Origin: Planctomycetota bacterium
Lineage (GTDB): Bacteria > Planctomycetota > UBA8108 > UBA1146 > JAJFFE01
DNA: 23,300 nucleotides
Assembly (NCBI GenBank): GCA_021776775.1
Contig: JAJFFE010000244.1
Coordinates: 1 to 23,300, forward strand
Direction: 5' to 3'
The notes under the pieces were generated by a model. It did no database searches, was not told the origin of the DNA, and saw only the letters and a list, made by a program, of their open reading frames with translations. How positions within the stretch are numbered: position 1 is the stretch's first letter; the number at the start of each line of letters is the position of its first letter. The translations under genes and the position numbers were made by a program. Positions 320-15,570 of this stretch are shown one piece after another.

Positions 320-1234
320 GTGGATAGCGCTCCCCGGAGTACGATGACGCCTCCCCCCACCCAACCGAGGAGTCGAGTAGTGACGCTGCGTCTCTGGATG
401 AGTGCCCTGGTCATCGTAGGGGTGACCAACGTGAACGGTGCCGCCGTGCGTGCGCACGGAACGGTTCACACCCGGCTCGCTCGAGTGAACGGGCGGCTCG
501 CGACGTCTCCTCGCGACCCATCGCTTTGGGTCATGCGAGCATCGCTGCATCGCGAGCACCGAGACCTCGATTCGGCGCAACGCGATCTCGATCATGCGTT
601 GGCCTTGGACGATCGACATCACGATGCGCTGCTCGCGCGAGCTGGCTTGGCGCTCGCCCGTCAGCGGTACGACGAAACCATCGATCGTTGTCGCGACCTT
701 ATCGATCATTCGCCCGACGATGCTGGCGCCACGCTCATCTTGGCCCGGGCGTTAACGGCATCGGGACAACTCGAGTCAGCGTTCGACAGCTACGAGCGGG
801 TGATCGAGTTGCTGCCGCGCCCTGCGCCAGACCTGTTCCTCGAACAAGCTCGCGTCGCCCGACGCGCGTTTCCGAACCACCCGTATCTCGCCGCGTGGAG
901 TTTGGAAGCGGGGGTCGAACGGCTCGGCCCGATCGTTTCTCTGGTCCTTCCTCTGATCGAACTCGAGGTCGCATCGGAACTGTACGCAGTGGCCGAAGCG
1001 CGGGTCGATACTCTCCTTCGACAGTCCACCCGCGCCGGTCGTTGGCTTGTTCTTCGCGCCGAGATTCGGCTAGCGGCCGGAGATCATGAACTGGCGCGTA
1101 ACGACGCGGCACTCGCGATCGAATCACTCGGCTCGTCGAAGCGGCGTCCCGGCTCCAAACTCACAACCCAACTTCTTGAACGCGCGAATCGAGTCGTGAT
1201 CGAATCGCACCTCAACCTGGAGAAGCAACCATGA
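320..1234 (+). CDS. TPR-like repeat protein with an N-terminal hydrophobic segment; true start uncertain (later in-frame starts possible)
   Basis: 304-aa ORF with repeated helical A/L/R-rich units typical of TPR/Sel1 proteins (e.g. 'DLDSAQRDLDHALALDDRHHDALLARAGLALARQRYDETIDRCRDLI'). The segment 'VVTLRLWMSALVIVGV' looks like a transmembrane or signal helix. Its stop TGA (1232-1234) overlaps the ATG of the next gene as ATGA, suggesting translational coupling. Family assignment is by eye. Confidence 0.6.
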   Translation: MDSAPRSTMTPPPTQPRSRVVTLRLWMSALVIVGVTNVNGAAVRAHGTVHTRLARVNGRLATSPRDPSLWVMRASLHREHRDLDSAQRDLDHALALDDRHHDALLARAGLALARQRYDETIDRCRDLIDHSPDDAGATLILARALTASGQLESAFDSYERVIELLPRPAPDLFLEQARVARRAFPNHPYLAAWSLEAGVERLGPIVSLVLPLIELEVASELYAVAEARVDTLLRQSTRAGRWLVLRAEIRLAAGDHELARNDAALAIESLGSSKRRPGSKLTTQLLERANRVVIESHLNLEKQP

Positions 1235-3321
1235 CTCGGCTCGTGATTCAGCTGTTGACGCTCATGCTCTTCAGTACGACGGTCTCGGCGGCGGACACGC
1301 TCGTCGGATTCGGTTCGACGTGGAAGTACCTCGACAACGGCACGGACCCGGGACCGCTGTGGACAACGGGTGGGTTCAACGACGCCGGCTGGGCGGAAGG
1401 ACCGGCCGAACTGGGATACGGAGACGGTGACGAATCCACCGTAGTCAGCTTCGGCCCCGACCCGGACAACAAATACGTCACGACATACTACCGGCACGAA
1501 GCCGTCGTCGCCGACCCGTCACTCTACGACAGCCTGATCCTGCGCTTGGTTCGTGACGATGGTGCGGTGGTCTACATCAACGGGACGGAGGTCTTTCGAA
1601 CCAACATGCACGCGGGAACGATCACCTCCACGACGTTTGCCGTCAGCACGATCGGCGGCTCGGAGGAGACGCTGTTCAACCTCGCGATCGTCAACCCTGC
1701 GATCCTCGACCCCGGTTCGAACACGATTGCGGTCGAGATTCACCAACGAGAACCGGACAGCTCAGACACGTCGTTTCGCCTGCAATTGGTGGGTCATCTG
1801 TCCACGGATCCTATCAACGTTCTCCGTGGCCCCTACCTGCAACGCATCGCGCCCGATCGTGCTGTCGTTTGCTGGCGCACGAACGCCTTCACTGACAGTC
1901 GAATCGCTTTTGGCGACTCACCGACGAACCTGACGACCGTGGTCGACGACACCGCGTTGACGTCGGACCACGCGGTCGAAGTCACGGGTCTGTCGCCGTC
2001 GACGGCCTACTTCTACGCCGTGGGCACAACGAACTCGCCCGCTGCACCGTGGCTGGCCGGGGCCGACGCTAGCCACAAGTTCACCACGTCGCCCGCCCCG
2101 AGCGACCCCGGCCCCATACGCGTGTGGGCCATCGGCGACTCGGGTACCGCGGACGCCAACGCCGCGGCGGTTCGTGACGCCTACCTCGGGCTGGCCGGTA
2201 GCGACGCGACCGATCTCTGGTTGATGCTGGGCGACAACGCATACGACGCCGGGACCGACACCGAGTACCAAGGCGCAGTGTTCGACATGTACCCGACGTT
2301 CCTGCGCGAGCTCTCGGTGTGGCCGACGCTCGGCAATCACGACGGGCGCAGCGCAAGTATCACGGGCGAAGGACCGTACTACGCCATGTTCGACTTGCCC
2401 ACGCTCGGTGAGAACGGCGGCTTGGCATCGGGAACCGAAGCGTACTACTCCTTCGACCACGGCAACGTACACTTCGTCTGTCTCGACTCGGAAGGAAGCA
2501 GCCGCTCCCCGGGAAGCGCGATGCTGACCTGGCTCGAGAACGATCTCGCCAGCACCGACCGAGAGTGGATCATCGCATTCTGGCACCACCCACCGTACAC
2601 CGACGGGTCTCACGACTCCGACGACCCGACCGACAGCAGTGGTCGTCTCTTCGACATGCGAGAGAACGTGCTTCCCATTCTCGAAGACGGTGGCGTTGAC
2701 TTGGTCCTATGTGGTCACAGCCACTCCTACGAGCGTTCGTTTCTTCTCGACGCCCACTACGGAGTTTCTTCGACGCTGACTGCCGGCATGACCGTCGACG
2801 GCGGCGATGGCGATCCCACCGGCGACGGGGCGTACGAGAAGCCCGCCGGCGTCACCTCGCACAACGGCGCGGTGTTCGTGGTCGCCGGGTCGTCCGGGAA
2901 AACCAGCTCCGCGACGCTCGCACACCCCGCCATGATCGTGAGCCTCGAAGAGCTAGGCTCGGTCGTACTCGACATCGACGGACGTGAACTTCAGGGACGG
3001 TTCCTACGGTCGAACTCAGCCATTGCCGATACGTTCGTGATTCGCAAGAACGGAGCGTTCATCCGCGGCGACGCCAACGACGACGGAGCGTTCGACGTCG
3101 CTGACCCCGTGACGATTCTCGGCCACCTGTTTCAGTCGGCGTCGGTGAACTGCCGATCAGCCTTGGATTCCAATGACGACGAGTCGCTGAACATCGCCGA
3201 CGCCGTGCACGCTCTTGCCGCGCTATTCTCGGCAGGTGCGCCGCCGACCGCACCGTACCCATCCTGCGGTGCAGACCCCACGCCGGGCGGGCTCGATTGC
3301 GTGTCGTCTTCATGCCCCTGA
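1231..3321 (+). CDS. Secreted purple-acid-phosphatase-like metallophosphoesterase. Layout: signal peptide, N-terminal beta-sandwich module, PAP-N fibronectin-like domain, calcineurin-like phosphoesterase core, C-terminal dockerin-type double Ca-binding repeat with a Cys-rich tail
   Basis: 696-aa ORF with strong GC3 bias. Signal peptide 'MTRLVIQLLTLMLFSTTVSAADT'. Metallophosphatase motifs appear in canonical order: GDSG, GDNAYD, GNHD, WHHPPY, GHSHSYER. A PAP-N-like segment 'VLRGPYLQRIAPDRAVVCWRT...AYFYAV' precedes the core. The C-terminus 'FIRGDANDDGAFDVADPVTILGHLF...LDSNDDESLNIADAVHALAALF' fits the dockerin type I repeat pattern (DxNxDGxxxxxD...L), followed by 'PPTAPYPSCGADPTPGGLDCVSSSCP'. 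Confidence 0.9.
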   Translation: MTRLVIQLLTLMLFSTTVSAADTLVGFGSTWKYLDNGTDPGPLWTTGGFNDAGWAEGPAELGYGDGDESTVVSFGPDPDNKYVTTYYRHEAVVADPSLYDSLILRLVRDDGAVVYINGTEVFRTNMHAGTITSTTFAVSTIGGSEETLFNLAIVNPAILDPGSNTIAVEIHQREPDSSDTSFRLQLVGHLSTDPINVLRGPYLQRIAPDRAVVCWRTNAFTDSRIAFGDSPTNLTTVVDDTALTSDHAVEVTGLSPSTAYFYAVGTTNSPAAPWLAGADASHKFTTSPAPSDPGPIRVWAIGDSGTADANAAAVRDAYLGLAGSDATDLWLMLGDNAYDAGTDTEYQGAVFDMYPTFLRELSVWPTLGNHDGRSASITGEGPYYAMFDLPTLGENGGLASGTEAYYSFDHGNVHFVCLDSEGSSRSPGSAMLTWLENDLASTDREWIIAFWHHPPYTDGSHDSDDPTDSSGRLFDMRENVLPILEDGGVDLVLCGHSHSYERSFLLDAHYGVSSTLTAGMTVDGGDGDPTGDGAYEKPAGVTSHNGAVFVVAGSSGKTSSATLAHPAMIVSLEELGSVVLDIDGRELQGRFLRSNSAIADTFVIRKNGAFIRGDANDDGAFDVADPVTILGHLFQSASVNCRSALDSNDDESLNIADAVHALAALFSAGAPPTAPYPSCGADPTPGGLDCVSSSCP

Positions 3322-3367
3322 ATTTGGCGCGTTCGGCAACGGCAACTCTTGCAACCGCACTGCACGA

Positions 3368-3493
3368 TCAACTAGAACGATCACGTTCTTCCCGGCGTAC
3401 CTCGGCCCGGCACTTGTCGCACAGCTTCCACCCACGCGTCACTTCGGACGCGGTCAACACCGTCTCGCACCGTTCGCATTTTCGATCGGCCAT
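3368..3493 (-). CDS. Candidate small (41-aa) zinc-ribbon protein lying in the gap between the convergent genes ending at 3321 and starting at 3550
   Basis: Minus-strand ATG at 3493 with GAGGGG seven nt upstream (SD-like). Translation 'MADRKCERCETVLTASEVTRGWKLCDKCRAEVRREERDRSS' carries CxxC-x16-CxxC. The ORF sits wholly in the 3322-3549 gap. The track's 130-aa version (to 3760) overlaps the well-supported gene on the opposite strand and is not favoured. Confidence 0.3.
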   Translation of the reverse strand: MADRKCERCETVLTASEVTRGWKLCDKCRAEVRREERDRSS

Positions 3494-3549
3494 GGATACA
3501 CCCCTCGAACTCAGATGACACGACAGGACGCACGATTCCCTCTCACTAC

Positions 3550-3942
3550 TTGAACACCGACTACCTGCTGACATCGACCAACGATCTGGCCGCGCTGCCG
3601 GCGGCGTTGGATTCGCACGTCGAGTTACTGCACTGCGAGCGAGACGAAGACGGCAAGTGGTACGCCACGATCGAAGCGGCAGATTCCGGCGAAGAGCACC
3701 GCACACCAACGCAGGACATCGAAAGTATCCTAGCCGCCCTCGACGCGATCGACCCCGCAATTGCCGAGCTCATCGCGGGCTGCGAGTCGAAAGAGATGAA
3801 CATCGGCTGGCAAGCGTCCTCCGATCGGCCGGAAGGCACCTTCGCCCTACAGCCGCGACTCCTCGGAGAACTGGCCGCTCGCGGAATCGAACTCGCCGTA
3901 ACGATCTACCCGTCGTCGGAGAACCTAGACGAAGACGAATAG
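3550..3942 (+). CDS. Hypothetical small acidic protein (130 aa), TTG start
   Basis: Very strong third-position GC bias along the whole ORF. No in-frame ATG or GTG lies between the upstream stop (3373) and the TTG at 3550. No recognisable domain. No obvious SD. Confidence 0.55.
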   Translation: MNTDYLLTSTNDLAALPAALDSHVELLHCERDEDGKWYATIEAADSGEEHRTPTQDIESILAALDAIDPAIAELIAGCESKEMNIGWQASSDRPEGTFALQPRLLGELAARGIELAVTIYPSSENLDEDE

Positions 3943-3964
3943 TCCGGACTCATAGGTTGAAGTT

Positions 3965-4340
3965 TAGGCGTAGCCAGGCATGGCGTTCAGGTTCTTGGGC
4001 CCGTGACAACAACACGCCACGATGGTGCGTCATCCGGCAAGGGCGCCGCGACCCCGCTTTTGTGGGCGCATCGTGGCGTGGCTCGAACACCAGTGGGTTT
4101 GGGGATGGCGGAGTCGATGGCTCGCCACCGACGATGAGGCACGGGAGTGGGATTGGTCGCCGGATTGCGTGTTGGCAAACAAGCACGGGTGTGAACGACG
4201 GACGGGCGCATCGGGGCGTGTCCGATTCTGTTCGGGGCGATGGGCAGCGGGGATGCCCGATGCTTGCGGGTGTGTGTTGGGTGATGAGAAATGTGCGCTA
4301 GGCGGCGTGATCCGTACCGGGCTGGGTCCGGTCTTCATGG
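3965..4340. repeat. Left arm of a long imperfect inverted repeat (palindromic non-coding element)
   Basis: By-eye alignment shows 3968-4340 is the reverse complement of about 4670-5055. Identity is about 90% over the 3990-4210 core and decays toward the centre. The arms differ by single-base indels (e.g. 'gggtttgggg' vs 'gggtt-gggg'), so the ORFs inside them are not conserved in frame. This argues against coding. Confidence 0.85.
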
Positions 4341-4669
4341 GCAAACGCGGGGCCTCGGCCGGTTGCGCTGATGGGTGCGGCATCGTGCAAACGATGTGAC
4401 GCGAACCGTGCCCACTCCCCGGCTTCGCAGGCGGAGTGTCTTTGCTGACGCATCGGGCTAGATCGCTAGTCGGTGAGGAACGCCTCGATCGACGAGCAAC
4501 AACCCCCGTACGCAAGAACCAGCACTGCCATAACACTCGCGCAACGAGCAGCAGACACCGTGACCAGCAGAGCGTGAAAACCCTGTCAAACGAAAGACGA
4601 CAAAGTTCTAAGATTCATCGTGCGAAACTGAGTCCAAAACAGAGGACCCATTGCGAACGCCAAACCTCG

Positions 4670-5055
4670 TCCGGACGGGATGGCCCAGCCGCATCTCCGA
4701 CAGGGATCACATAGCCCCTGCCAACATCCACATACCCCAACCGACACCCAACGGAGTCGGGCACCTTCGCTGCCCCTCGCACGGAACAGAATGGTTCACG
4801 CCCGATGCGCCGGTCCTTCGTTCTCACCCGTGCTTGTTTGCCAACCCGCGACCCGGCGACCGACCCCACTCCCGTGCCTCATAGTCGGTGGCGAGCCATC
4901 GACTCGGCCATCCCCAACCCACTGGTGTTCGAGCCACGCCACGATGCGCCTGCAAAAGCGCCGTCGCGGCGCCCTTGCCGGATGACGCACCATCGTGGCG
5001 TGTGGTTCAACCCTGGAGGGTCACGGGGCAAGAACCGTGAACGCTACGCCTGGCG
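4670..5055. repeat. Right arm of the same inverted repeat
   Basis: Reverse complement of 4798-5055 aligns base-for-base with 3968-4210 (e.g. 'ccacgatggtgcgtcatccggcaagggcgccgcgac', 'gcgcatcgtggcgtggctcgaacaccagtgggtt'). The outer ~35 bp overlap the 3' end of the minus-strand gene 5021-5356. Confidence 0.85.
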
Positions 5056-5356
5056 GCGAGGCCGACGCGAGCCTATCGACGAGCCGCGTTGTCTCGTCGT
5101 CGCCTCTGTCGGGATGGCCGTCGAGCGTATTGCACAGAAACTTCGGAGTTCCGTAGGTCACCGACCACGTGCCGTCTTCGAGGCGCGACGCCGTGACTTC
5201 GAACGTCGTCTGCACCCCTTCGCGTTCTTGCGACTCGGACAAGATGACCCAGCCCGAGATTGGGGACGGCCAGTCGAACTTCAGCTTCGGGGTGTCGCCC
5301 GTGTCGGACGACGCGATTGACAACACGGAGACCAAGAACGATGTGAGAATCAACAC
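5021..5356 (-). CDS. Small secreted hypothetical protein (111 aa), GTG start
   Basis: AGGAGG lies 8 nt upstream of the GTG at 5356 (minus strand). The N-terminus 'MLILTSFLVSVLSIASS' looks like a signal peptide. Strong GC3 bias. Same orientation as the RecQ-like gene and immediately downstream of it. Confidence 0.55.
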   Translation of the reverse strand: MLILTSFLVSVLSIASSDTGDTPKLKFDWPSPISGWVILSESQEREGVQTTFEVTASRLEDGTWSVTYGTPKFLCNTLDGHPDRGDDETTRLVDRLASASPPGVAFTVLAP

Positions 5357-5370
5357 GGAACAACCCTCCT

Positions 5371-7470
5371 CTAGATCATCCCACGCGAGCCGAGTCGCCA
5401 GCGAACTCGAGCGATCGTGAGCGGCACGATATCGTCCTTGAAGTTCGCCCCTTTGCGCAAGGCGCGAATCGCTTCCTTGAGGGTCACTCCGGAGCCCAGG
5501 TAGTCGTCCACGATCAACATGGCGCCTTGGGGAAGTCGTGTGTGCGCGGGGGTCAATTTGCCGTGCACGTTGTCACGGCGTTGGTCGTTGTTCAACAACT
5601 CGCCCTGCCGCGACTCCGGTTCGGGATCCCACTCCAGCAGGTCGTCGAACACCCGGATGCCCAGGACCCGCTCGATTCGGCGACCGATCGCGGCCCGCTG
5701 AGACCAGGTGCGACTCGGAATCATGACGGCAAACGTGAACGTCGTCGTTTCAGCCAAGCGCAGGAGCGCTGCCTCGAACTGTTCTGCGAGGTCATCGCTC
5801 AGGTCGTCCTGCTCGGCGCGCGACTGCATGAATGCGACGAACTGCGGACTCCGCACTTGCCCGTCGAGGAGTGACAGTCCCGCTTCCATCTTTGGCGCGC
5901 GGGTCGCCGGAATTGCAATGTCACGGTGCGTAACCCAACGACGCGCGGCGGCGAGTTCGGATTCGGCGATCGGCTCGACGGCAACTCCCGGTTGGCAGCT
6001 TCCGCAACGACCACACTCCGTCGCTTCGGTGTCGCCGAGCGCCAAGCGCAACCGCTGCATGGAACAACTCGTCGACGAGCGACCATACTCGAGCATCGCT
6101 TCTAGCTCTTCGGTCCGCACGACGTGTTGTCGTTCGTAGCGCGACAGGTCCGCACGATCTTGTCGATCGGTTTGCAAATACACCTGACGGCGTCCCGCGA
6201 GCCGCTTGACGACGAAGCCTTGCTCGACCAACTCGGCAATCACGACCGTCACCTTGGTCGGGTGCATCCCGGTCAAGGCGCCGATCTGTCGACGCGCCGG
6301 AGCGTTGTCTTCGGCGCCACGTCGCTCCTTCGGCATACACGACAACACAGTCGCAAAGTCTTCGACGGTCGGCTGCGCGGAGCGAATGAAGTACTCCTGT
6401 ACCTCTCGATCGCGCTCGTCGTAGAGAAGGATTCCGGTGGCGGGATCACCATCGCGACCCGCTCGGCCGACTTCTTGGTAGTAGGCGGTGATCGAACCGG
6501 GAACGTCGACGTGCACGATGAAGCGAATGTCCGGTTTGTCGATGCCCATGCCGAGCGCATTCGTGGCGGCGATCACACACTGCTCACCGGTCGTGAACCG
6601 CGCTTGCAGGTCTCGCTTGAGATCCGGCGCCAGCCCCGCGTGGTAGGCGACAACGTTGTGCCCGACGGACGACAGATAACCCGCGATGATCTCGGTATTC
6701 TCTCGCGTCGAGCAGTAAAGGACTCCGCACGCCTTCCCCGCCTGTCCGTACTCTTCGAGCAGCTGCGACAAGCGAACCAGCTTGGCGTCGAGGCCGGGCG
6801 TCGGGATGACCCGTAGCGAAATGTTCGGCCGGTCCATGGTCTGACGCTGGATCGCCGATTCGCCGCCGTCCTCTGCCCGGAACTGGACCAGTATGTCGGT
6901 TTCGGTCCGAGCATTGGCCGTCGCGGTGAGACCGAGCACGCGTAGCTCGGGGCGTACGTTCTGCAGCGCGTGCACCGCGTGCATGATCTGCCGATACGAC
7001 GGCCTGAAGTCATGCCCCCACGTCGAAATGCAGTGCGCTTCATCGACGACGAAGAGATCGATCGGGAGGCTAGTGATGAACTCGAACGTCTCCAAGTTGT
7101 CGAGCCGCTCCGGGGCGACGAACAAGATGCGCAGCTGGCCCTTGCGGGCCGCGGTCATGACCGCCGCGTTCTCTTCCTCGGTTTGGTCAGAGTTGATCGA
7201 CCCCGCGGCCATGTCGAAACGAGTCTTAAGCTGCCCGACTTGATCTCGCATGAGCGCAAGGAGGGGCGAGACCACGAGGGTCATGCCTTCGAGAACTGCC
7301 GCGGGCAGCTGATAGAGCAACGACTTCCCGTGGCCCGTCGGCTGAATGCAGACCAGCCGTCCAGTCTCGAACAGAGTCTCGATTGCCTCCCGTTGTCCGG
7401 GTCTGTAGCCGTCGAAACCGAACCGTTCTCGTAGTACGTCATCCATTGCGGGGGGGATAGCGCTTGCCAT
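5371..7470 (-). CDS. recQ: RecQ-family ATP-dependent DNA helicase fused to a C-terminal ComF/GntX-type phosphoribosyltransferase-like domain
   Basis: 699-aa ORF. N-terminus 'RPGQREAIETLFETGRLVCIQPTGHGKSLLYQLPA' (motif I), 'VVDEAHCISTWGHDFRPSY' (DEAH box) and a RecQ Zn-binding Cys cluster '...CSMQRL...ECGRCGSC'. It lacks the usual HRDC end. Instead the last ~200 aa carry a type-I PRTase signature 'GAMLIVDDYLGSGVTLKEAIRAL', as in ComFC. Confidence 0.9.
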   Translation of the reverse strand: MASAIPPAMDDVLRERFGFDGYRPGQREAIETLFETGRLVCIQPTGHGKSLLYQLPAAVLEGMTLVVSPLLALMRDQVGQLKTRFDMAAGSINSDQTEEENAAVMTAARKGQLRILFVAPERLDNLETFEFITSLPIDLFVVDEAHCISTWGHDFRPSYRQIMHAVHALQNVRPELRVLGLTATANARTETDILVQFRAEDGGESAIQRQTMDRPNISLRVIPTPGLDAKLVRLSQLLEEYGQAGKACGVLYCSTRENTEIIAGYLSSVGHNVVAYHAGLAPDLKRDLQARFTTGEQCVIAATNALGMGIDKPDIRFIVHVDVPGSITAYYQEVGRAGRDGDPATGILLYDERDREVQEYFIRSAQPTVEDFATVLSCMPKERRGAEDNAPARRQIGALTGMHPTKVTVVIAELVEQGFVVKRLAGRRQVYLQTDRQDRADLSRYERQHVVRTEELEAMLEYGRSSTSCSMQRLRLALGDTEATECGRCGSCQPGVAVEPIAESELAAARRWVTHRDIAIPATRAPKMEAGLSLLDGQVRSPQFVAFMQSRAEQDDLSDDLAEQFEAALLRLAETTTFTFAVMIPSRTWSQRAAIGRRIERVLGIRVFDDLLEWDPEPESRQGELLNNDQRRDNVHGKLTPAHTRLPQGAMLIVDDYLGSGVTLKEAIRALRKGANFKDDIVPLTIARVRWRLGSRGMI

Positions 7471-7703: not shown

Positions 7704-8486
7704 ATGATCATCCGTTCACTGTTGGCTTGTGCCCTGTCCCTTTGCCTCGTGAGTCCCGCCGTCGCGGGGTCACACCTCTGGCAAATCAACGAGATCTTTT
7801 CGAGTGCCGACGGCACCGTGCAGTTCATCGAAATGCGAGAGTGCTGCGGCGCCCCGAGCGAAACCGGTATCGGCGGCAAGTGGGTCCTCAGCGACGCGAC
7901 CGGAATGCAGTTCGACTTCCCGGCCAGCCTGACCGGCTCCACTGCGAACATGCACTTGCTGCTCGCCACAGCCGCCTTCGCAGCGCTGCCCGGTGCGCCC
8001 ACCCCAGACTACATCATTCCGGAGAACTTCTTTAGCCTCGACGCGGATACGTTGGACTACTGGTTCTACGCCGGTGCGACCATGACCTATACCTCTGGGC
8101 AGCTCCCGCTCGACGGACTCAACTCGCTCGATCGAAACGGTGTGGTCGAAGTCAACAGCCCGACCAACTTCGCCGGCGACTCCGGCTCGGTCACGCTCAC
8201 CCCGCCGACCGGGCCCGAGTTCATTCGTGGCGACGCCAACCAAAACGGTGGCATCGAAATCGCCGACGCAGTCTCGATTCTCGATGCACTGTTCGGCGGC
8301 GTGCCGCTAGCGTGCGCGTTGGCCGGCGACTCGAACGATGACAACTCGGCAGACATCTCGGATGCGATCTTCGAGTTGACATACCTGTTCGTCAGCGGCG
8401 CCGCGCCGCCCGCGCCGTTCCCCGCGTGTGGCGAAGATCCCACCGGTGGATCGACCCTGACGTGTGACACGCCCGCGTGTCCATGA
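7704..8486 (+). CDS. Secreted protein: signal peptide, lamin-tail-domain-like N-terminal module, C-terminal dockerin-type double repeat with a three-Cys tail
   Basis: GGAG lies 7 nt upstream of the ATG. Signal peptide 'MIIRSLLACALSLCLVSPAVAGS'. 'LWQINEIFSSADGTVQFIEMRE' matches the LTD hallmark (INEI...FIEL). The C-terminus 'FIRGDANQNGGIEIADAVSILDALF...GDSNDDNSADISDAIFELTYLF...PPAPFPACGEDPTGGSTLTCDTPACP' is the same module as in the PAP-like protein. Confidence 0.85.
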   Translation: MIIRSLLACALSLCLVSPAVAGSHLWQINEIFSSADGTVQFIEMRECCGAPSETGIGGKWVLSDATGMQFDFPASLTGSTANMHLLLATAAFAALPGAPTPDYIIPENFFSLDADTLDYWFYAGATMTYTSGQLPLDGLNSLDRNGVVEVNSPTNFAGDSGSVTLTPPTGPEFIRGDANQNGGIEIADAVSILDALFGGVPLACALAGDSNDDNSADISDAIFELTYLFVSGAAPPAPFPACGEDPTGGSTLTCDTPACP

Positions 8487-9154
8487 AGTCGCTTTCGTTG
8501 ATAGCGCTCTTGGTCGTGGTCGGCCTTCTCGGCTGCACCGAACGCGCATCGACGAACGAAGAGGCCTCCGGTGCGAACGCACCGGGGGCCTCTCTCGCAT
8601 CAGATCTACCCGCCGCGGATCAGCCTACGGCGCACGCGTGCGATGGTTGCGCCCTGGCGCGCCTCAGCAATCGCGAGTGCAAAACATGCGGCGTCCGGTA
8701 TGTGGCCGGACTCGAGATCCCGTCGGAGATGCTGTTCGAGCTGCTCGACGCGCACGGCCATACCTACAACCCGAGCTCGCTACCCTGCCAAGGCTGCCGA
8801 GAGGCGTCCGCGACGAATGGACTCTGCGCCGAACATCGGTGGGGATTCGCCAAGGGACAACTCTACTTTTCGAAGCTGTCGTACTTGCTCGCGCAAGGGA
8901 AGCCACAAACCCGTGAAACCCTACCGTGCACCACGTGCCAGGGTTCCGACGCCACGATCTGGTGTGACCGTTGCGGTCACGGCTGGGTCGGCAACGTCGC
9001 CTTCACCGATCCCGTGCAACACTCGCAAGCGATCGAAGAGTACGAGCACCTCGTCGCCTGCGTCGAAACCGCCGCCGTGTGTGAGAAGTGCGCTGCTGCC
9101 AAATTCAGCGGCATGAAGTGCCCCACCTGTAAGACGACCTACCCGCGCCGCTAG
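8483..9154 (+). CDS. Cys-rich lipoprotein with four tandem CxxC-pair (zinc-ribbon/rubredoxin-knuckle-like) repeats
   Basis: The ATG at 8483 overlaps the upstream stop as ATGA (coupled). Lipobox 'VVVGLLGC'. Seven CxxC motifs sit in a ~50-aa periodicity: CDGC-x10-CKTCG, CQGC-x9-CAEH, CTTC-x8-CDRCG, C-x7-CEKC-x9-CPTC. Each second knuckle is followed by G-x2-[YW]-[VG]. The track's GTG start at 8477 is less likely than the overlapping ATG. Confidence 0.8.
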   Translation: MKSLSLIALLVVVGLLGCTERASTNEEASGANAPGASLASDLPAADQPTAHACDGCALARLSNRECKTCGVRYVAGLEIPSEMLFELLDAHGHTYNPSSLPCQGCREASATNGLCAEHRWGFAKGQLYFSKLSYLLAQGKPQTRETLPCTTCQGSDATIWCDRCGHGWVGNVAFTDPVQHSQAIEEYEHLVACVETAAVCEKCAAAKFSGMKCPTCKTTYPRR

Positions 9155-9178
9155 CCCCTTCTCGTTGCTACCGGCGGT

Positions 9179-10033
9179 TCACTCACACCCTGCGAACGAA
9201 TCACACGACAGGCTGTCGGGAGTCGGGTCGCCACCACAATCGCTCGGCGGCTCGAGAGGTGGCGTCGAAGCGACGAACAACGTCTCGAGTAGACGCACGA
9301 CATCGGCAATATCCAGTGCGCCGTCGTCGTTGCCGTCGCACGAACTGTCACACGGAGGCACGGTTGCCGCGCCGCTCGGGAACAGCTTGCCGAGCAGGAA
9401 CACCCCGTCGGAGATATCGTACGACGCGTCGTCATTGCAATCGCCACGGATGAACACGCCGGAGGAGGGCATGAGGGTCAGTGTCCCGGAGTTCCACGTC
9501 GTAGGCGCACTCAAGGTCGGAAAGATGGTCACCAGGTTGATCACAACCGGCCCCCCCGGGACGCGGGACAACGCCTCACTGAATTCGAGGCTCGTCGACA
9601 GCACTCCACCGCTCAGCGTCGGTTGCACCTCGTACGTGATTTCGAGGACCGGCTCCGCGGAGGGGAACGTCAGAAACACAAGCGAAGTCAGATTGTAGAC
9701 GCACCCCAGTGTCACCCCGAAGTCAGTGACCGAGTCTCCCCAGAAGTCCGGACCCGCTCCGCTGTTCAACGCAGCGATGATCGGCCCCTGATTCGACTCC
9801 GTGGCGACCACGAACACGTCGTCGTGCGCGACCCCCATCGAGAACCCTTGAGTGTCGTTCACAACACCGCTCAACTCCTCGATGGTCACCGAAACGGTAA
9901 ACTCCGTCGCGAGACCCGGAACGTACGACACCGTCTGGTCGGCGATGGCGAACTCGAACAGAATCTGTCCGCTCGCGACCGCGGGGAAAGCAAACAGCAC
10001 GATGACAATCGCTCGACAACAGGCGTGGTGCAT
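9179..10033 (-). CDS. Secreted hypothetical protein ending in the same dockerin-type double repeat plus Cys tail
   Basis: Signal peptide 'MHHACCRAIVIVLFAFPAVASGQ'. GGAAAGG lies upstream of the ATG (minus strand). The last 91 aa 'FIRGDCNDDASYDISDGVFLLGKLF...CDGNDDGALDIADVVRLLETLF...PPSDCGGDPTPDSLSCDSFAGCE' match the module seen in two other proteins here. The N-terminal ~170 aa match no family recognisable by eye. Confidence 0.8.
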   Translation of the reverse strand: MHHACCRAIVIVLFAFPAVASGQILFEFAIADQTVSYVPGLATEFTVSVTIEELSGVVNDTQGFSMGVAHDDVFVVATESNQGPIIAALNSGAGPDFWGDSVTDFGVTLGCVYNLTSLVFLTFPSAEPVLEITYEVQPTLSGGVLSTSLEFSEALSRVPGGPVVINLVTIFPTLSAPTTWNSGTLTLMPSSGVFIRGDCNDDASYDISDGVFLLGKLFPSGAATVPPCDSSCDGNDDGALDIADVVRLLETLFVASTPPLEPPSDCGGDPTPDSLSCDSFAGCE

Positions 10034-10798: not shown

Positions 10799-10873
10799 AG
10801 CGCTATAGCTCAGTGGATAGAGCATAGGACGGCAATCCTACGGGCGCAGGTTCGAATCCTGCTAGCACTACCA
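10799..10873 (+). tRNA. tRNA-like gene (75 nt with CCA) with a non-canonical anticodon arm; anticodon not assignable by hand (possibly a degenerate tRNA-Ala(GGC)-like sequence)
   Basis: Hand fold: acceptor AGCGCUA/UAGCACU (one C3:A70 mismatch), U8A9, canonical D-arm GCUC-AGUGGAUA-GAGC, T-arm GCAGG-UUCGAAU-CCUGC, discriminator A, CCA. The anticodon arm UAGGA-CGGCAA-UCCUA closes a 6-nt loop, one nt short and lacking U33. Total length is 75, not 76. Confidence 0.5.
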
Positions 10874-11182: not shown

Positions 11183-12325
11183 ATGTACAAGCTCCTCGTC
11201 CGAATCCTCGAGGATCAATACGGACTGCTCTACCAGAACGGTGACTTCGTTCGCGTACTAAAACCCGGTCTGTACCGGTTGTGGCGGAACCTGCGGCCGT
11301 ACGGAACGCGAGACTCCGTCGAAGTCTACGATCGGCAGGACGCGCGGTTCGAGAACGATCGCTTGCGGTCGCTCGTCGAGAAGCCGGCCCTCGCCGAGCT
11401 TCTGGACGTGGTCGACCTCAAGGATGACGAACGGGCGCTCGTATGGATCGACGGGCGACTCGACTCGATTCTCGGGCCCGGCCTGCACGCGTTCTGGCGG
11501 GAGCCGCGGAAGATCCGCATCGAGCGGCACACCGTCGGCGCTGGCCGGTTCGTACACGATCAGATGGACACCGTCCTGAAGGTCGCCGGAAGCGCGTCGC
11601 ACCTGACGACGTTCATGGTCGACGCTTACCAGGTCGCGCTCGTCTTCGTGGACGGAAACCTTATCGAGTCGGTTGGTCCGGGTCGGTACGTTCACTGGCT
11701 GGGACGCGGCACGCTGAACATCCGCACCATCGACTTGCGAGAGCAGGTTCTCGATGTCAGCGGCCAAGAGATCATGACGCAGGACAAAGTTGGACTGCGG
11801 ATGAACCTCGTGGTTCAGTTCGTGGTCGCCAACCCGGAGATCGCGGTGACGGCGACGACGGACTACTCGCAAGCGCTCTACCGAGAAGCGCAGCTCGCGC
11901 TGCGGGCCGCGGTCGGTACGCGTGAACTCGATGCCCTGTTGACCGACAAAGAGTCGGTCGGCGCCGAGCTTCGGCGAGCGTTGACCGAGCGGGCGACGAC
12001 CCTGGGTCTTGCTCTGCACTCGGTCGGACTGCGGGACATCGTGCTGCCGGGTGAGATGCGGGCGATGCTCAACCAGGTGATCCTGGCGGAGAAGCAGGCG
12101 CAAGCGGACCAAATCCGTCGCCGCCAGGAAACGGCCTCGGCTCGGAGCCAAGCCAACACGGCGAAGCTCTTGGCGGAGAACCCGGTTCTCACGCGGATGA
12201 AGGAGCTCGAGCTCTTGCAGGACATCCTCGCGGGAACGAAGGCGACGTTCGTCTTCGGCCGGGGAGACATGGCCGAAGAGCTGCGGGCCACGTTGGGAAC
12301 GCAGTTGCAACCCGACGATTCTTGA
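11183..12325 (+). CDS. SPFH/band-7 (stomatin/HflC-like) family protein with a duplicated N-terminal beta module
   Basis: AGGAGG lies 8 nt upstream of the ATG. The C-terminal half reads 'GLRMNLVVQFVVANPEIAV...YSQALYREAQLALRAAVGTRELDALLTDKE...LGLALHSVGLRDIVLPGEMRAMLNQVILAEKQAQADQIRRRQE', a typical SPFH core with a coiled-coil tail. The segments 'ALVWIDGRLDSILGPGLHAFW' and 'ALVFVDGNLIESVGPGRYVHW' are an internal repeat. Confidence 0.85.
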   Translation: MYKLLVRILEDQYGLLYQNGDFVRVLKPGLYRLWRNLRPYGTRDSVEVYDRQDARFENDRLRSLVEKPALAELLDVVDLKDDERALVWIDGRLDSILGPGLHAFWREPRKIRIERHTVGAGRFVHDQMDTVLKVAGSASHLTTFMVDAYQVALVFVDGNLIESVGPGRYVHWLGRGTLNIRTIDLREQVLDVSGQEIMTQDKVGLRMNLVVQFVVANPEIAVTATTDYSQALYREAQLALRAAVGTRELDALLTDKESVGAELRRALTERATTLGLALHSVGLRDIVLPGEMRAMLNQVILAEKQAQADQIRRRQETASARSQANTAKLLAENPVLTRMKELELLQDILAGTKATFVFGRGDMAEELRATLGTQLQPDDS

Positions 12326-12519: not shown

Positions 12520-13284
12520 TCAGCCGTAACTCATCGGCCCTTTCGCCGTGACGCCTTCCGTCCCCAATAGCCGGTACTTCGTTTTGATGCGCTTGCCGGC
12601 CCTCATGATCGTCACGCCCATGCCCCCGTCGCCCGTCGGAGCCAAGCCTACCTGCAAGCCCACGTCGGTCCACATGGCCGTCGACGCCAGACGAACACCG
12701 GGGTTGAAGTTCAGGCGTGTTGGTTCTTCTGCAGCAGCGACAACGATCGTGCGACCCTTGGCACCCGATCCCCAAAGTTGCCATTCGGTGCCTTGCGTGT
12801 CGCGACGCGTGATCGCGTAATGCTGAACGCGATACCGACCCGCAGGAAGAGTACGTGCGGCCTTGCCGTCTTCGGCCTTCCACACCAGCCGAATCGGCGT
12901 CGCGCTTTTGCCGTCCGAGGCTATGGGTGTCAGGAGTACCGACAAGTTCTCCGGCTCGGAGAGCGCGATCTGGCCCTCTCCGGCTGCGGCGTCACGCACG
13001 GTCGACTCCCGCTTCGGCACGTCATCCTTGCCGAGCAGGTACGCTCGAAGCGCCCCGCGCAATGGCGCACTCTTCTTGCCGAGTGGCTGCACGCACGTCG
13101 TCTCCGAGACACGATCGATCCATAACTGGTCAGACGACAGCTCCGGGTCGGGTCGACCGTGACACGTCGTGCACGGTTGAAACTCCGCGCGCGCGTCGAT
13201 CTTGGCTGGCCGTGAATCCTGGCTATACACGGCGCCTGTCGAGAGCAAGCACGATGCGACGAACACGATACGAACGAGAGTCAT
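12520..13284 (-). CDS. Secreted protein with a single CxxCH haem-binding motif (putative c-type cytochrome-like domain protein)
   Basis: Preferred start is the ATG at 13284 (MTLVRIVFVASCLLSTGAVYSQD, a signal peptide, with GGAG upstream), rather than the track's 13368. It contains 'CTTCHG'. The rest matches no family recognisable by eye. GC3 bias is consistent with coding. Confidence 0.6.
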   Translation of the reverse strand: MTLVRIVFVASCLLSTGAVYSQDSRPAKIDARAEFQPCTTCHGRPDPELSSDQLWIDRVSETTCVQPLGKKSAPLRGALRAYLLGKDDVPKRESTVRDAAAGEGQIALSEPENLSVLLTPIASDGKSATPIRLVWKAEDGKAARTLPAGRYRVQHYAITRRDTQGTEWQLWGSGAKGRTIVVAAAEEPTRLNFNPGVRLASTAMWTDVGLQVGLAPTGDGGMGVTIMRAGKRIKTKYRLLGTEGVTAKGPMSYG

Positions 13285-13641
13285 GTCATCGTCCCTTTCT
13301 CCGGAGTGATGTATTCCACCACCATGAGGTCGCGTCCGCCAGATAACAAGAGGCGGTACACGCGGCACGGTCTCCCGAGACGAGTTTGCACGCCAAGTCG
13401 AGATCCGGCGGAGTCCCGCGGCCCGTAGAACGCGACCCGTGGACCAAGTCGGAACTGCGAACCAACCGAGGCCGAGCCGCGGGCCGACAACCCAACCCCC
13501 TACCCATCAATCACTTCGAACGCGCAGCGATGTCCGACAACGGCACACGTAACCGTCTCAGCTCTCGGATGTTATCTTTTGATGAAGTGACCTATTCCCT
13601 CACTCCGTGTATTCCCCGAACGTCGAAACAGGATCCTCAGA

Positions 13642-15570
13642 ATGCTCTCACGCCCCTTCGCGGCCTGCGCCATCGCACTGTCGTTGTTTGTTTGTTCCTG
13701 CACCGGTGGTGTCGCCCACGGCACGGCGCGTCTCGACTCGCCTCAGTCAGCGGCCGAGTCGATCGTAACGGCCATCGAAAACAGTGATCGCGCTGCGTTC
13801 CTCGCCTGCCTGACCGGCGGTGCTCGCGAGGCGCTCGAAGCAGGAGAAGGATTCGACCTCTCGTCCGGGGGTCAGCTTGCGACGAACATCGGCAAGGCCG
13901 TCGTCACGGGCAACGAAGCGGCGGTGCCACTCACCGCAGAAGACGACGGCGAAGCGCAATCGATGACCCTACTCCTGCGCAAGGTCGACTCCGAATGGAG
14001 AATGTACGGGATCCGCATGAGCGCGGGCACCGAGGGTGAAATCACCATCGACTTTCAAGAGATGGCCCGCATGACCAACATGATGGCCGAGCAGATGGCG
14101 TCGTCGATGCAAGACTCTTGGAACGAAGCGCTGGAGCGCCAGAAGGCGCACGCGATCGCCCAACGTGTTCAGGTCTTCGAACAACTCCGGGGGTTGGACA
14201 ACGCGACCTTCGAACAGTCTTGGCGAAACTCGACAGACTTCTCCGGTCAAACCGTCGAGCAGGCGGTCACCGCGCTCGCCGGCGAGTTAGGATTACAGAT
14301 CGAGACCGCCGCAAGTTCGTCGTCTTTGCAAGCCACCGTAGACACCGAGGTCGCGGGTCTCAGTAAGATCGAGGCGATCGAACGACTCTGCGCCCAAGTC
14401 TCGCTGGCCCCGGTGTGGCCTTCGGTACAGATGGCGTTGCAAGCAGAGATGTCCGGAGAGTCGACCGAAGAACACGATCGCATTCGGTTCGAACCGGCCA
14501 GCGACGACCGCCACGTTTCCTTCGCGGGACCGTTTGCCGTTCGGGTCACCGAGGTCGTGCAGAACGTCCCGTACGCCCGCGGATCACTCAGGCTGACCAC
14601 GTCGGCGTTCGGACTCGATATCGGGGTGCTCGGCTCACTGACCGGCCTCGGCGAAACCAATGTCATCGACCATGTGCGCGACGCATCGGGCGCGAGCCTG
14701 ATGGCGCAGGAAAACATCCGCTTCTGGGGTGGCGGCACTCAACGCGGGACGTCCTTCGATAGCTCAACCAAAGTCGAACTCAAGAACATGCTGCGAAGCG
14801 TAAACAGCATCGGCACTGCCGAGGGCTCACGACGCCTCCGACTCCCGCAGACGGTCGAGTCCATCGAGTTCGAATCGCCGAAGATCGGCGATTCAGGGCG
14901 CGTTGGCGACTACACGGTCAAGGTCAAGAGCATAGGAGCGTCGTTCTCGGCGGAGATCGAAGGCTCGCAAGAGCACATCGACGAAGTCGCGGTCTTCGGC
15001 CGAGCTCTCGACAGCTCCGGAAACGACATGGAAATTTCGTTCGACAGCGCCTCGAAATGGGGTCGAGACAAGGTCCTCTACAGCATGAACACCGACGGCA
15101 GTCCCGCCAAGTTCATGCTCAAGATCGTGACGCGATCCCAGGTCCTCGAGTACCCGTGGTCGTTCTCCGACATCGCGTTGGATCGTCACGCGGAGATGCC
15201 TGAAGCGCTCGAATCGCTCACGTTCACCGGATCGCAGCCGATCACCATGACGTTCGACGGCTTTCACAACGCCAGCAACCAGTTCCCCGAGGCAAAGCTG
15301 ACGATCACGAACCATACGAACAAGCTGATCCAATCGGCCACGGCTACGTTCGTCTATGTCGATGCTAAGCGTAAGAAGCTCGGCGACCACATGGCGACCA
15401 TTCAAGGCGACATGACCATGAATGGAACGCAACCGCTAGCCGAGCCCGGGGCGACGACGACCAAGAAGCAAACCGCGTTCTTCCGACCGGACGGCACCGA
15501 AAGCATGACCATCAAGCTCGAATCGATCGAGTTCATGGACGGCTCGACCTGGCCGGAAGAAAAAAAGTAG
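13642..15570 (+). CDS. Large (642-aa) secreted protein or lipoprotein, hypothetical
   Basis: N-terminus 'MLSRPFAACAIALSLFVCSCTGG' is a signal peptide, possibly a lipoprotein. The ORF is long and uninterrupted with GC3 bias. No domain recognisable by eye. Confidence 0.8.
   Translation: MLSRPFAACAIALSLFVCSCTGGVAHGTARLDSPQSAAESIVTAIENSDRAAFLACLTGGAREALEAGEGFDLSSGGQLATNIGKAVVTGNEAAVPLTAEDDGEAQSMTLLLRKVDSEWRMYGIRMSAGTEGEITIDFQEMARMTNMMAEQMASSMQDSWNEALERQKAHAIAQRVQVFEQLRGLDNATFEQSWRNSTDFSGQTVEQAVTALAGELGLQIETAASSSSLQATVDTEVAGLSKIEAIERLCAQVSLAPVWPSVQMALQAEMSGESTEEHDRIRFEPASDDRHVSFAGPFAVRVTEVVQNVPYARGSLRLTTSAFGLDIGVLGSLTGLGETNVIDHVRDASGASLMAQENIRFWGGGTQRGTSFDSSTKVELKNMLRSVNSIGTAEGSRRLRLPQTVESIEFESPKIGDSGRVGDYTVKVKSIGASFSAEIEGSQEHIDEVAVFGRALDSSGNDMEISFDSASKWGRDKVLYSMNTDGSPAKFMLKIVTRSQVLEYPWSFSDIALDRHAEMPEALESLTFTGSQPITMTFDGFHNASNQFPEAKLTITNHTNKLIQSATATFVYVDAKRKKLGDHMATIQGDMTMNGTQPLAEPGATTTKKQTAFFRPDGTESMTIKLESIEFMDGSTWPEEKK

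Follow-up and report, generated by a model that had tools for sequence, protein, structure and literature searches.

A dockerin-like module with a cysteine-bearing tail on three secreted proteins, one of them a likely cohesin, of an uncultured planctomycete

We analyzed the 23,300 bases (hereafter, the window; ~62% G+C) that make up the whole of contig JAJFFE010000244.1 of a Planctomycetota bacterium genome (GCA_021776775.1) and also occur in a Logan assembly, in which three genes for secreted proteins end in the same module of ~90 amino acids (aa). The core of the module has the Ca2+-loop pattern and the predicted fold of a dockerin, and it is extended by a cysteine-bearing tail that characterized dockerins lack. 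One of the three proteins also carries a domain that, by profile similarity and structure prediction, is a cohesin. We favor, at a probability of about 0.62, the reading that the module is a dockerin-fold domain with a disulfide-pinned tail, which docks its passenger proteins onto cohesins in a Ca2+-dependent manner within an extracytoplasmic assembly.

A shared C-terminal module in three secreted proteins

Protein 1 (1231..3321, + strand, 696 aa) consists of a signal peptide, an N-terminal domain, a purple-acid-phosphatase-like metallophosphoesterase (Pfam matches: Metallophos, 67.8 bits; Pur_ac_phosph_N, 36.4 bits) and the C-terminal module at 3058..3318. Its two Ca loops lie at 3070-3105 and 3166-3201, the Cys codons start at 3151, 3265, 3298 and 3313, and the tail (3265-3318) reads CGADPTPGGLDCVSSSCP. 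Protein 2 (7704..8486, + strand, 260 aa) has a signal peptide, a conserved N-terminal domain of unknown function (GSHLWxINE...) and the module at 8220..8483, with Ca loops at 8232-8267 and 8328-8363, Cys codons at 8313, 8427, 8463 and 8478, and the tail CGEDPTGGSTLTCDTPACP at 8427-8483. Protein 3 is encoded on the opposite strand (9179..10033, - strand, 284 aa) and combines a signal peptide, a cohesin-like domain and a six-Cys version of the module (9182..9454). The Ca loops of this version are at 9407-9442 and 9302-9337, its Cys codons at 9437, 9350, 9338, 9236, 9203 and 9185, and its tail (9182-9238) reads CGGDPTPDSLSCDSFAGCE. All three proteins start with a signal-peptide-like segment, and their translations have no hydrophobic segment C-terminal to the module.

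The modules begin with F-I-R-G-D at 3058, 8220 and 9454, and when aligned over ~90 aa they share 31 of 90 invariant columns and 50% identity to the first sequence. A hidden Markov model (HMM) built from unrelated family members and run against the six-frame translation of the window hit these three sites and no others (E 1e-31 to 1e-35). The original prediction, made from the sequence of the window, that three open reading frames (ORFs) end in one ~90-aa module is thus borne out by translation, alignment and HMM, and so is its claim that their N-terminal domains are unrelated (Metallophos/Pur_ac_phosph_N, an unannotated family and a cohesin-like domain, respectively). Other details needed revision. 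Protein 3 deviates twice from the repeat motif as it was first written, with DDAS for DDG and C for [GL] before the second loop; the Pro-rich linker that was said to precede a fixed tail is present, but its register is not fixed; and the proposed invariant Cys triad, consisting of the three tail Cys, becomes a tetrad with a fourth invariant Cys between the repeats.

The three copies resemble each other much less as DNA than as protein. A recent duplication of the module was rejected on the basis of this low DNA identity, which points instead to old paralogous modules kept by protein-level selection.

The module core is predicted to be a dockerin

The ligand pattern of dockerins and EF-hands, D-x-N-x-[DN]-x6-D, is kept in each of the six Ca loops of proteins 1-3, and the structure models place a helix after each loop. 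Searched against the PDB, a profile of the three window modules found the type I dockerin 2y3n_B (E 0.005) followed by a run of dockerins, and the dockerin match improved to E 5.8e-7 when the wider family alignment was used. Relatives retrieved with the module profile pass Pfam Dockerin_1 (PF00404; gathering threshold 22.9 bits, compared with 24.1 bits for Cohesin, PF00963) by a large distance, e.g., P0053 at 134 bits and P0056 at 96.6 bits, and 61 of 133 isolated family modules match PF00404 at E<=0.01. An AlphaFold2 model of the protein 2 module, based on 46 sequences, reached a mean predicted local distance difference test score (pLDDT) of 92.6 and a predicted template modeling score (pTM) of 0.83. 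The top 27 PDB matches of this model in Foldseek were all dockerins, as expected of a dockerin fold.

Scanning the C-termini with PF00404 and with sorting-signal models, as had been proposed as a check, gave no direct match: at E<=1 the NCBIfam scan of the window proteins matched no dockerin, cohesin or sorting-signal model. Family membership was therefore established via profiles and relatives. Because the loops, the profile matches to the PDB, the Pfam-passing relatives, the structure model and the Foldseek matches all agree, we call the predicted core a dockerin at the edge of Pfam's model, in support of the dockerin type-I-like double repeat claimed earlier.

Cysteine pairs and the tail

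The Cys between the repeats is invariant in the three proteins (C641 in protein 1, C204 in protein 2 and C228 in protein 3), and the protein 3 module has two further Cys, C199 and C232. To examine Cys usage across the family, we counted 396 modules from 200 relatives, with no correction for phylogeny. The inter-repeat Cys was detected in 95% and the Cys of the L-x-C motif in 87% of these modules, and all 20 modules without the former were also without the latter. The Cys of the C-G motif and the last Cys were both present in 102 modules, both absent in 150 and mixed in 15 (odds ratio 306, p 7e-55, ignoring kinship). A similar co-occurrence was found for the Cys in loop 1 and the Cys before loop 2 (odds ratio 256, p 1e-34, again ignoring kinship). 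In keeping with this pairwise pattern, the Cys count was even in 145 of 164 terminal modules of the representatives and in 91 of 99 copies at genome loci.

Given that the Cys are gained and lost in pairs, the sequences argue for one to three independent intramolecular disulfides, probably two each in proteins 1 and 2 and three in protein 3. The core pair would join the inter-repeat Cys to the L-x-C Cys, a second and optional one the C-G Cys to the last Cys, and a third, also optional and represented by protein 3, the Cys within Ca loop 1 to the one that immediately precedes Ca loop 2. The predicted pairs are C641-C690 and C679-C695 in protein 1, C204-C254 and C242-C259 in protein 2, and C228-C277, C266-C283 and C199-C232 in protein 3.

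In the protein 2 module model, the tail is predicted to be folded. Residues 71-90 (block pLDDT 95 and 89) form a small hairpin with bridges at G79 and C90, and a further bridge runs from F9 to C40, the inter-repeat Cys. Solved dockerins cover at most 68-75 of the 96 modeled residues and the Pfam model has 57 positions, so the last ~20-25 residues of the module are an addition to characterized dockerins. The earlier statement that the Cys tail lies outside the classical dockerin therefore holds with regard to both the solved clostridial and ruminococcal dockerins and Pfam's 57 positions.

A candidate cohesin partner encoded in the window

The N-terminal domain of protein 3 (9464..9967, - strand, residues about 23-190) is a cohesin-like beta-sandwich and a candidate receptor for the modules. 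A word-index search with this domain found only protein 3 itself, and phmmer against the PDB gave no match. An iterative search among module-bearing relatives tied it to the domains that lie between modules in these proteins (first-round match P0181, E 1.7e-4). An HMM of 21 such domains from which protein 3 had been left out recovered protein 3 at 51.3 bits (E 1.9e-15), with no other match in the window. The profile of this cohesin-like family matched solved cohesins in the PDB, i.e., 2vn5_A (E 1.9e-8), 3l8q_A and 1g1k_A, and one relative (P0074) matched Pfam Cohesin PF00963 at 58 bits. The model of the whole of protein 3 (pLDDT 81.8) had cohesins as all of its top 47 Foldseek matches in the PDB, including 5lxv_C (E 1.5e-9) and 1g1k_A (TM score 0.79). 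The domain thus combines a predicted cohesin beta-sandwich fold with profile similarity to solved cohesins, and on these two lines of evidence we assign it as a cohesin.

Cohesins are the canonical receptors of dockerins. The original prediction counted protein 3 as a third cargo protein; with its N-terminal domain assigned as a cohesin by the leave-one-out HMM, the PDB profile matches and Foldseek, it is the likely receptor or adaptor for the modules, and a candidate partner is thus encoded within the window, 700 bases from the protein 2 gene.

The association of cohesin and module recurs across the family. Dockerin-cohesin-dockerin (D-C-D) was the commonest architecture among the best 150 relatives (40 cases), in which longer alternations were found as well. 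Each of the 27 cohesin ORFs at the genome loci likewise has a module at its end (C-D, 15; C-C-D, 11; D-C-D, 1). A metagenome scan, performed with a narrower cohesin alignment and motif, found 15 loci, and contigs L086-L094 and L097 among them carry tandem arrays of 3-5 same-strand genes, each encoding (Coh)1-3-Doc. At most of these array loci the genes are followed by a larger ORF of >1,350 aa with weak cohesin matches. Some tails at array loci are without the DPT motif (CGVEVGSDCDATNYCP) yet have the three Cys.

A giant secreted protein (15860-23299, + strand) with DUF11-type repeats (141.8 bits, 6 stretches) runs off the end of the window after >2,480 aa. It had been suggested as a place where the partner might lie. 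We rejected it as the receptor, as no cohesin-like match was detected in its visible 2,480 aa, with its C-terminal part lying beyond the window; the other ORFs in the window were likewise without a cohesin-like match.

Distribution of the module and its position in proteins

An exhaustive search of 1.84 billion cluster representatives with the three-sequence module profile matched 31,731 proteins at E<=0.001, of which 19,451 reached E<=1e-10. Since plain dockerin repeats also score with this profile, each count is an upper bound on tail-bearing proteins. As a less biased sample we collected 80 loci from GTDB species genomes, nearly all of which are Planctomycetota metagenome-assembled genomes from marine, groundwater and sediment samples, and several loci come from one genome (e.g., seven from P01_B01_bin.70). 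Two or more module genes were located within about 6 kb at 28 of the 80 loci. The passengers in 94 ORFs included FG-GAP repeats (n = 12), cytochrome c7 (n = 5), cohesin (n = 5) and subtilases (S8; n = 3), as well as M14 and M9 peptidases, GSDH, beta-helix and PKD domains; no cellulase was found among them. Only 4 of the 94 whole ORFs reached Dockerin_1 at E<=1e-4. The subtype is missed by Pfam about half the time, and wholly so for the three window genes, and some relatives have already been named 'dockerin type I repeat-containing protein' by NCBI. The module family is large and very widespread in metagenomes, and mostly found in Planctomycetota. The possibility, allowed for in the original prediction, that the tail is confined to the three window proteins is thus at odds with a genome-wide family.

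The position of the module was profiled in two sets of proteins. The best 150 relatives, a set biased to multi-copy proteins, have 2-10 copies per protein and 412 copies in all (C-terminal, 129; N-terminal, 122; internal, 161), 321 of which reach into the tail. Among the copies with a full three-Cys tail, 40 of 103 are located away from the C-terminus. In two relatives (P0052 and P0057) the ...C-x4-C-P of one module abuts the F-x-R-G-D of the next, and in some others a complete module directly follows the signal peptide. At the 80 genome loci a single C-terminal copy is usual, and the last module ends <=12 residues from the stop in 104 of 115 ORFs.

Proteins 1-3 end in ...C-x4-C-P/E without a hydrophobic stretch, as opposed to a membrane-anchor sorting signal, and no PEP-CTERM, IPTL-CTERM, LPXTG or T9SS model matched the window proteins in the NCBIfam scan. 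The earlier view that the module is neither PEP-CTERM nor LPXTG is consistent with both results. A general sorting signal would be strictly C-terminal and present once, which is not the case for the multi-copy, internal and N-terminal modules in relatives, so the tail is not a terminal sorting signal. The suggestion that the module is a sorting tag that ends the protein and is perhaps cleaved was therefore abandoned, in view of modules that occur with their tails internally, in tandem and after signal peptides, and of a tail that is predicted to be folded.

The protein 2 passenger and its neighbor

Small secreted proteins with the N-terminal domain of protein 2 (7770-8219, + strand; mature N-terminus GSHLWxINE...) number at least 424 and come from Planctomycetota and Phycisphaerales, with 55-72% identity in the best 120; protein 2 itself had no match in Pfam or NCBIfam. 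The C-terminal ends of the best 120 homologues of this domain differ. Four have the full module, about 51 a short double repeat resembling the GC-type dockerin (on P0205 the GC-type model NF041540 scores 23.8 bits, under its cut-off of 29), and at least 26 an IPTL-CTERM-like membrane anchor (the orthologues P0250 and P0266 score above the cut-off of TIGR04174). The remaining ~39 are unclassified or fragments, several of which resemble membrane anchors. On this passenger, a membrane-anchor sorting domain can thus stand in for the module. This suggests that the module, too, may hold its passenger at the cell, i.e., that it has a tethering role.

The next gene (8477..9154, + strand, 225 aa) has a 10-base overlap with the end of the protein 2 gene, including its stop codon, and encodes a CxxC-rich putative lipoprotein with a lipoprotein-like N-terminus. 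The protein and its homologues (L082:3066-3689; L083:6776-7339, - strand; L084:7089-7715, - strand) have in common 16 invariant Cys, arranged as eight CxxC-type pairs, and an LDAHGH motif that is likewise invariant, and no Pfam or NCBIfam family was matched. Homologues adjoin every protein 2 orthologue examined, across three C-terminal endings and two gene orientations. As the gene stands beside protein 2 orthologues whatever their C-terminal end, it is linked to the N-terminal domain and not to the module, and its product is probably a functional partner of that domain. The Cys-rich lipoprotein, earlier considered as the partner or a processing enzyme of the module, was rejected in this role for the same reason.

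Interpretation and alternatives

In the reading that we favor, the proteins would be exported via their Sec signal peptides and the module oxidized outside the cytoplasm. There it would fold into two Ca2+ loops of the EF-hand-like (F-hand) kind with a helix after each, then a Pro-rich turn and a tail of ~20 residues that packs onto the core and is probably pinned by the intramolecular disulfides described above. The module most likely binds cohesin-like domains, such as that of protein 3, in a Ca2+-dependent manner, by which the phosphoesterase and protein 2 would be tethered into an assembly that may be extracytoplasmic or at the cell surface. Because the cohesin carriers of the family nearly always end in a module of their own, they could also chain onto further cohesins.

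Several observations weigh against this reading. Proteins 1-3 do not match Pfam Dockerin_1 at E<=1, nor do the isolated modules at E<=10, and protein 3 is below the Pfam Cohesin threshold, with no Pfam match at E<=1. Membership in both families rests on profiles, transitive homology and predicted folds, and the Cys co-variation counts are uncorrected for phylogeny. No cohesin with a membrane or wall anchor was identified, and to our knowledge there are many dockerin-like modules outside cellulosomes for which no cohesin partner has been demonstrated.

Alternatively, the module may be a dockerin-like Ca2+-binding domain that does not bind cohesins, and instead recognizes another ligand (a glycan of the cell wall or outer membrane, or a protein) or serves only as a folding or stability element of exported proteins that depends on Ca2+ and disulfides. 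This is suggested by the 87 of 116 module-bearing ORFs that have no cohesin in the same protein and by the location of a cohesin within 3 kb at only 17 of the 80 loci, and the evidence here for a pairing of cohesin and module is their co-occurrence. That co-occurrence is strong, however: all 27 cohesin ORFs at the genome loci carry a module, D-C-D outnumbers every other architecture in the top relatives, genes encoding Coh-Doc form arrays on metagenome contigs, and a cohesin gene is found close to that of protein 2. In cellulosomes, too, cohesins are normally few and dockerins many. We consider a domain that does not bind cohesins unlikely.

Two further explanations fare worse. The module could be a C-terminal secretion or sorting signal, as are the C-terminal domains of the type IX secretion system (T9SS), PEP-CTERM and IPTL-CTERM, recognized by dedicated machinery and with a Cys tail that is cleaved or modified. 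Its position near the stop codon in the unselected genome loci fits such a signal, as does its replacement by a true sorting domain, IPTL-CTERM, on protein 2 orthologues, but a C-terminal position is the rule for classical dockerins too. It is difficult to reconcile a sorting signal with three-Cys-tail modules that are internal, follow signal peptides or stand in tandem (up to 10 copies), with the lack of a transmembrane helix and of any NCBIfam sorting-model match, or with a tail predicted with high confidence to be folded on a helical dockerin, rather than a beta-sandwich as in T9SS domains, and we regard it as very improbable. The four conserved Cys could alternatively be a metal site (Zn or Fe) in place of disulfides, given that proteins 1 and 2 have four invariant Cys within about 55 residues and that a CxxC-rich protein is encoded next door. 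A Cys4 site is argued against because most members carry only two Cys, the inter-repeat and L-x-C ones, and the others come strictly in pairs, which fits independent disulfides; moreover, the signal peptides indicate export to an oxidizing compartment, and the CxxC protein tracks the protein 2 N-terminal domain. A metal site is, in our judgment, very unlikely.

Of the two original readings, docking is supported and a sorting tag is not, and the module is an uncharacterized variant of a known assembly system. A broader, tentative extension, which we hold to be possible but doubtful, is that Planctomycetota have a phylum-wide, non-cellulosomal cohesin-dockerin system with its own class of dockerin, distinguished by one to three disulfides and the tail. 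As nearly every cohesin carrier in it ends in a dockerin, its parts could polymerize into chains or a mesh that would hold a diverse exoproteome (phosphatases, peptidases, cytochromes and FG-GAP proteins) at the cell, and in evolution the module would be interchangeable with IPTL-CTERM anchoring. The tail could provide another surface for recognition, or it could make binding redox-dependent.

As far as we know, cohesin-dockerin pairs are the best-understood route to extracellular enzyme complexes in bacteria and have been studied almost only in cellulolytic Firmicutes. The window provides a compact example from an uncultured planctomycete, with two enzyme-like passengers and a putative cohesin-dockerin adaptor within 9 kb. 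If the pairing is true, it would give a testable handle on how Planctomycetota organize their secreted proteins, and protein engineering might gain a disulfide-stabilized dockerin scaffold. With a profile that covers the tail, thousands of 'hypothetical' proteins would be better annotated.

Other features of the window

Between the protein 1 gene and the next gene lies a region of ~2 kb (3322-5370) to which no gene was assigned. Its ORFs on either strand are all short, Arg-rich and of low quality, and Rfam gave no match. The region is followed by a gene for a RecQ-like helicase (5371-7470, - strand; DEAD, Helicase_C and RecQ_Zn_bind), with a C-terminal extension of ~200 residues that has a weak likeness to phosphoribosyltransferases (PF00156, E 0.0014). 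A tRNA gene was detected at 10799-10873 (+ strand; Rfam, 59 bits), for which ARAGORN did not name the anticodon. Its stem UAGGA/UCCUA encloses a loop of six bases (CGGCAA), one below normal, and the acceptor stem has one non-standard pair; a pseudogene or an assembly error could account for this, as could an unusual tRNA. An SPFH/Band 7 gene is located at 11183-12325. Two ORFs for secreted or lipoprotein-like proteins, at 13642-15570 (+ strand, 642 aa) and 12520-13368 (- strand, 282 aa), had no significant family match.

Comparison with known systems

The closest structural likeness of the module is to type I dockerins (PF00404), including the Ruminococcus flavefaciens group 1 dockerin 5m2o_B and Doc48S of Clostridium thermocellum (2mte), although the window copies are under the Pfam threshold. 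The modules differ from cellulosomal dockerins in the recognition pair at loop positions 10-11, which is [IV]-[AS] where clostridial dockerins have S-T, and in the additional inter-repeat Cys and the extension of ~25 residues, PPxP...CG-DPT...L-x-C...C-P, to which nothing corresponds in the 72-75 columns at most over which solved dockerins align. Also in contrast to cellulosomes, the passengers are not cellulases and the hosts are Planctomycetota. No description of the Cys tail was found in the open-access literature at the title and abstract level, searched for dockerin together with disulfide or Planctomycetota, and for planctosome.

Two other C-terminal elements occur in place of the module on protein 2 orthologues. 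The GC-type dockerin (NF041540, 'GC-type dockerin domain-anchored protein') is likewise a short, Cys-containing, C-terminal double repeat on secreted proteins, and its NCBI name implies an anchoring domain. Its consensus is different, with D-x-D-x-D-G...L-L-x-x-W-G-x-C occurring twice and without the Pro-rich linker or the CG-DPT tail; the window proteins did not match NF041540 at E<=1, and their sequences are without W-G-x-C ends. IPTL-CTERM (TIGR04174/PF18203) takes the same position, suggesting that it and the module have an equivalent tethering role, but it consists of a short motif, a transmembrane helix and a basic tail, whereas the module is predicted to be a folded, soluble domain without a membrane segment.

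The nearest system in concept is the 'Planctosome', hypothesized from genomes alone for freshwater Planctomycetes (Andrei et al. 2019, ISME J, PMC6461901) as a non-cellulosomal cohesin/dockerin system. In the passages describing it, the planctosome would assemble secreted enzymes (peptidases), it includes adaptors with both dockerin and cohesin, and it rests on Pfam-detectable domains in Nemodlikiaceae and on an LTD-bearing anchor protein (PMC6461901). The non-cellulosomal cohesin/dockerin and the dual dockerin and cohesin adaptor are shared with the window, whereas the passages on dockerin and cohesin in that paper describe no Cys tail (PMC6461901). The planctosome model also includes its LTD anchor, while no anchor was found here and the N-terminal domain of protein 2 was not confirmed as an LTD. 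As far as those passages outline it, the window is a small and partly different instance of the planctosome idea.

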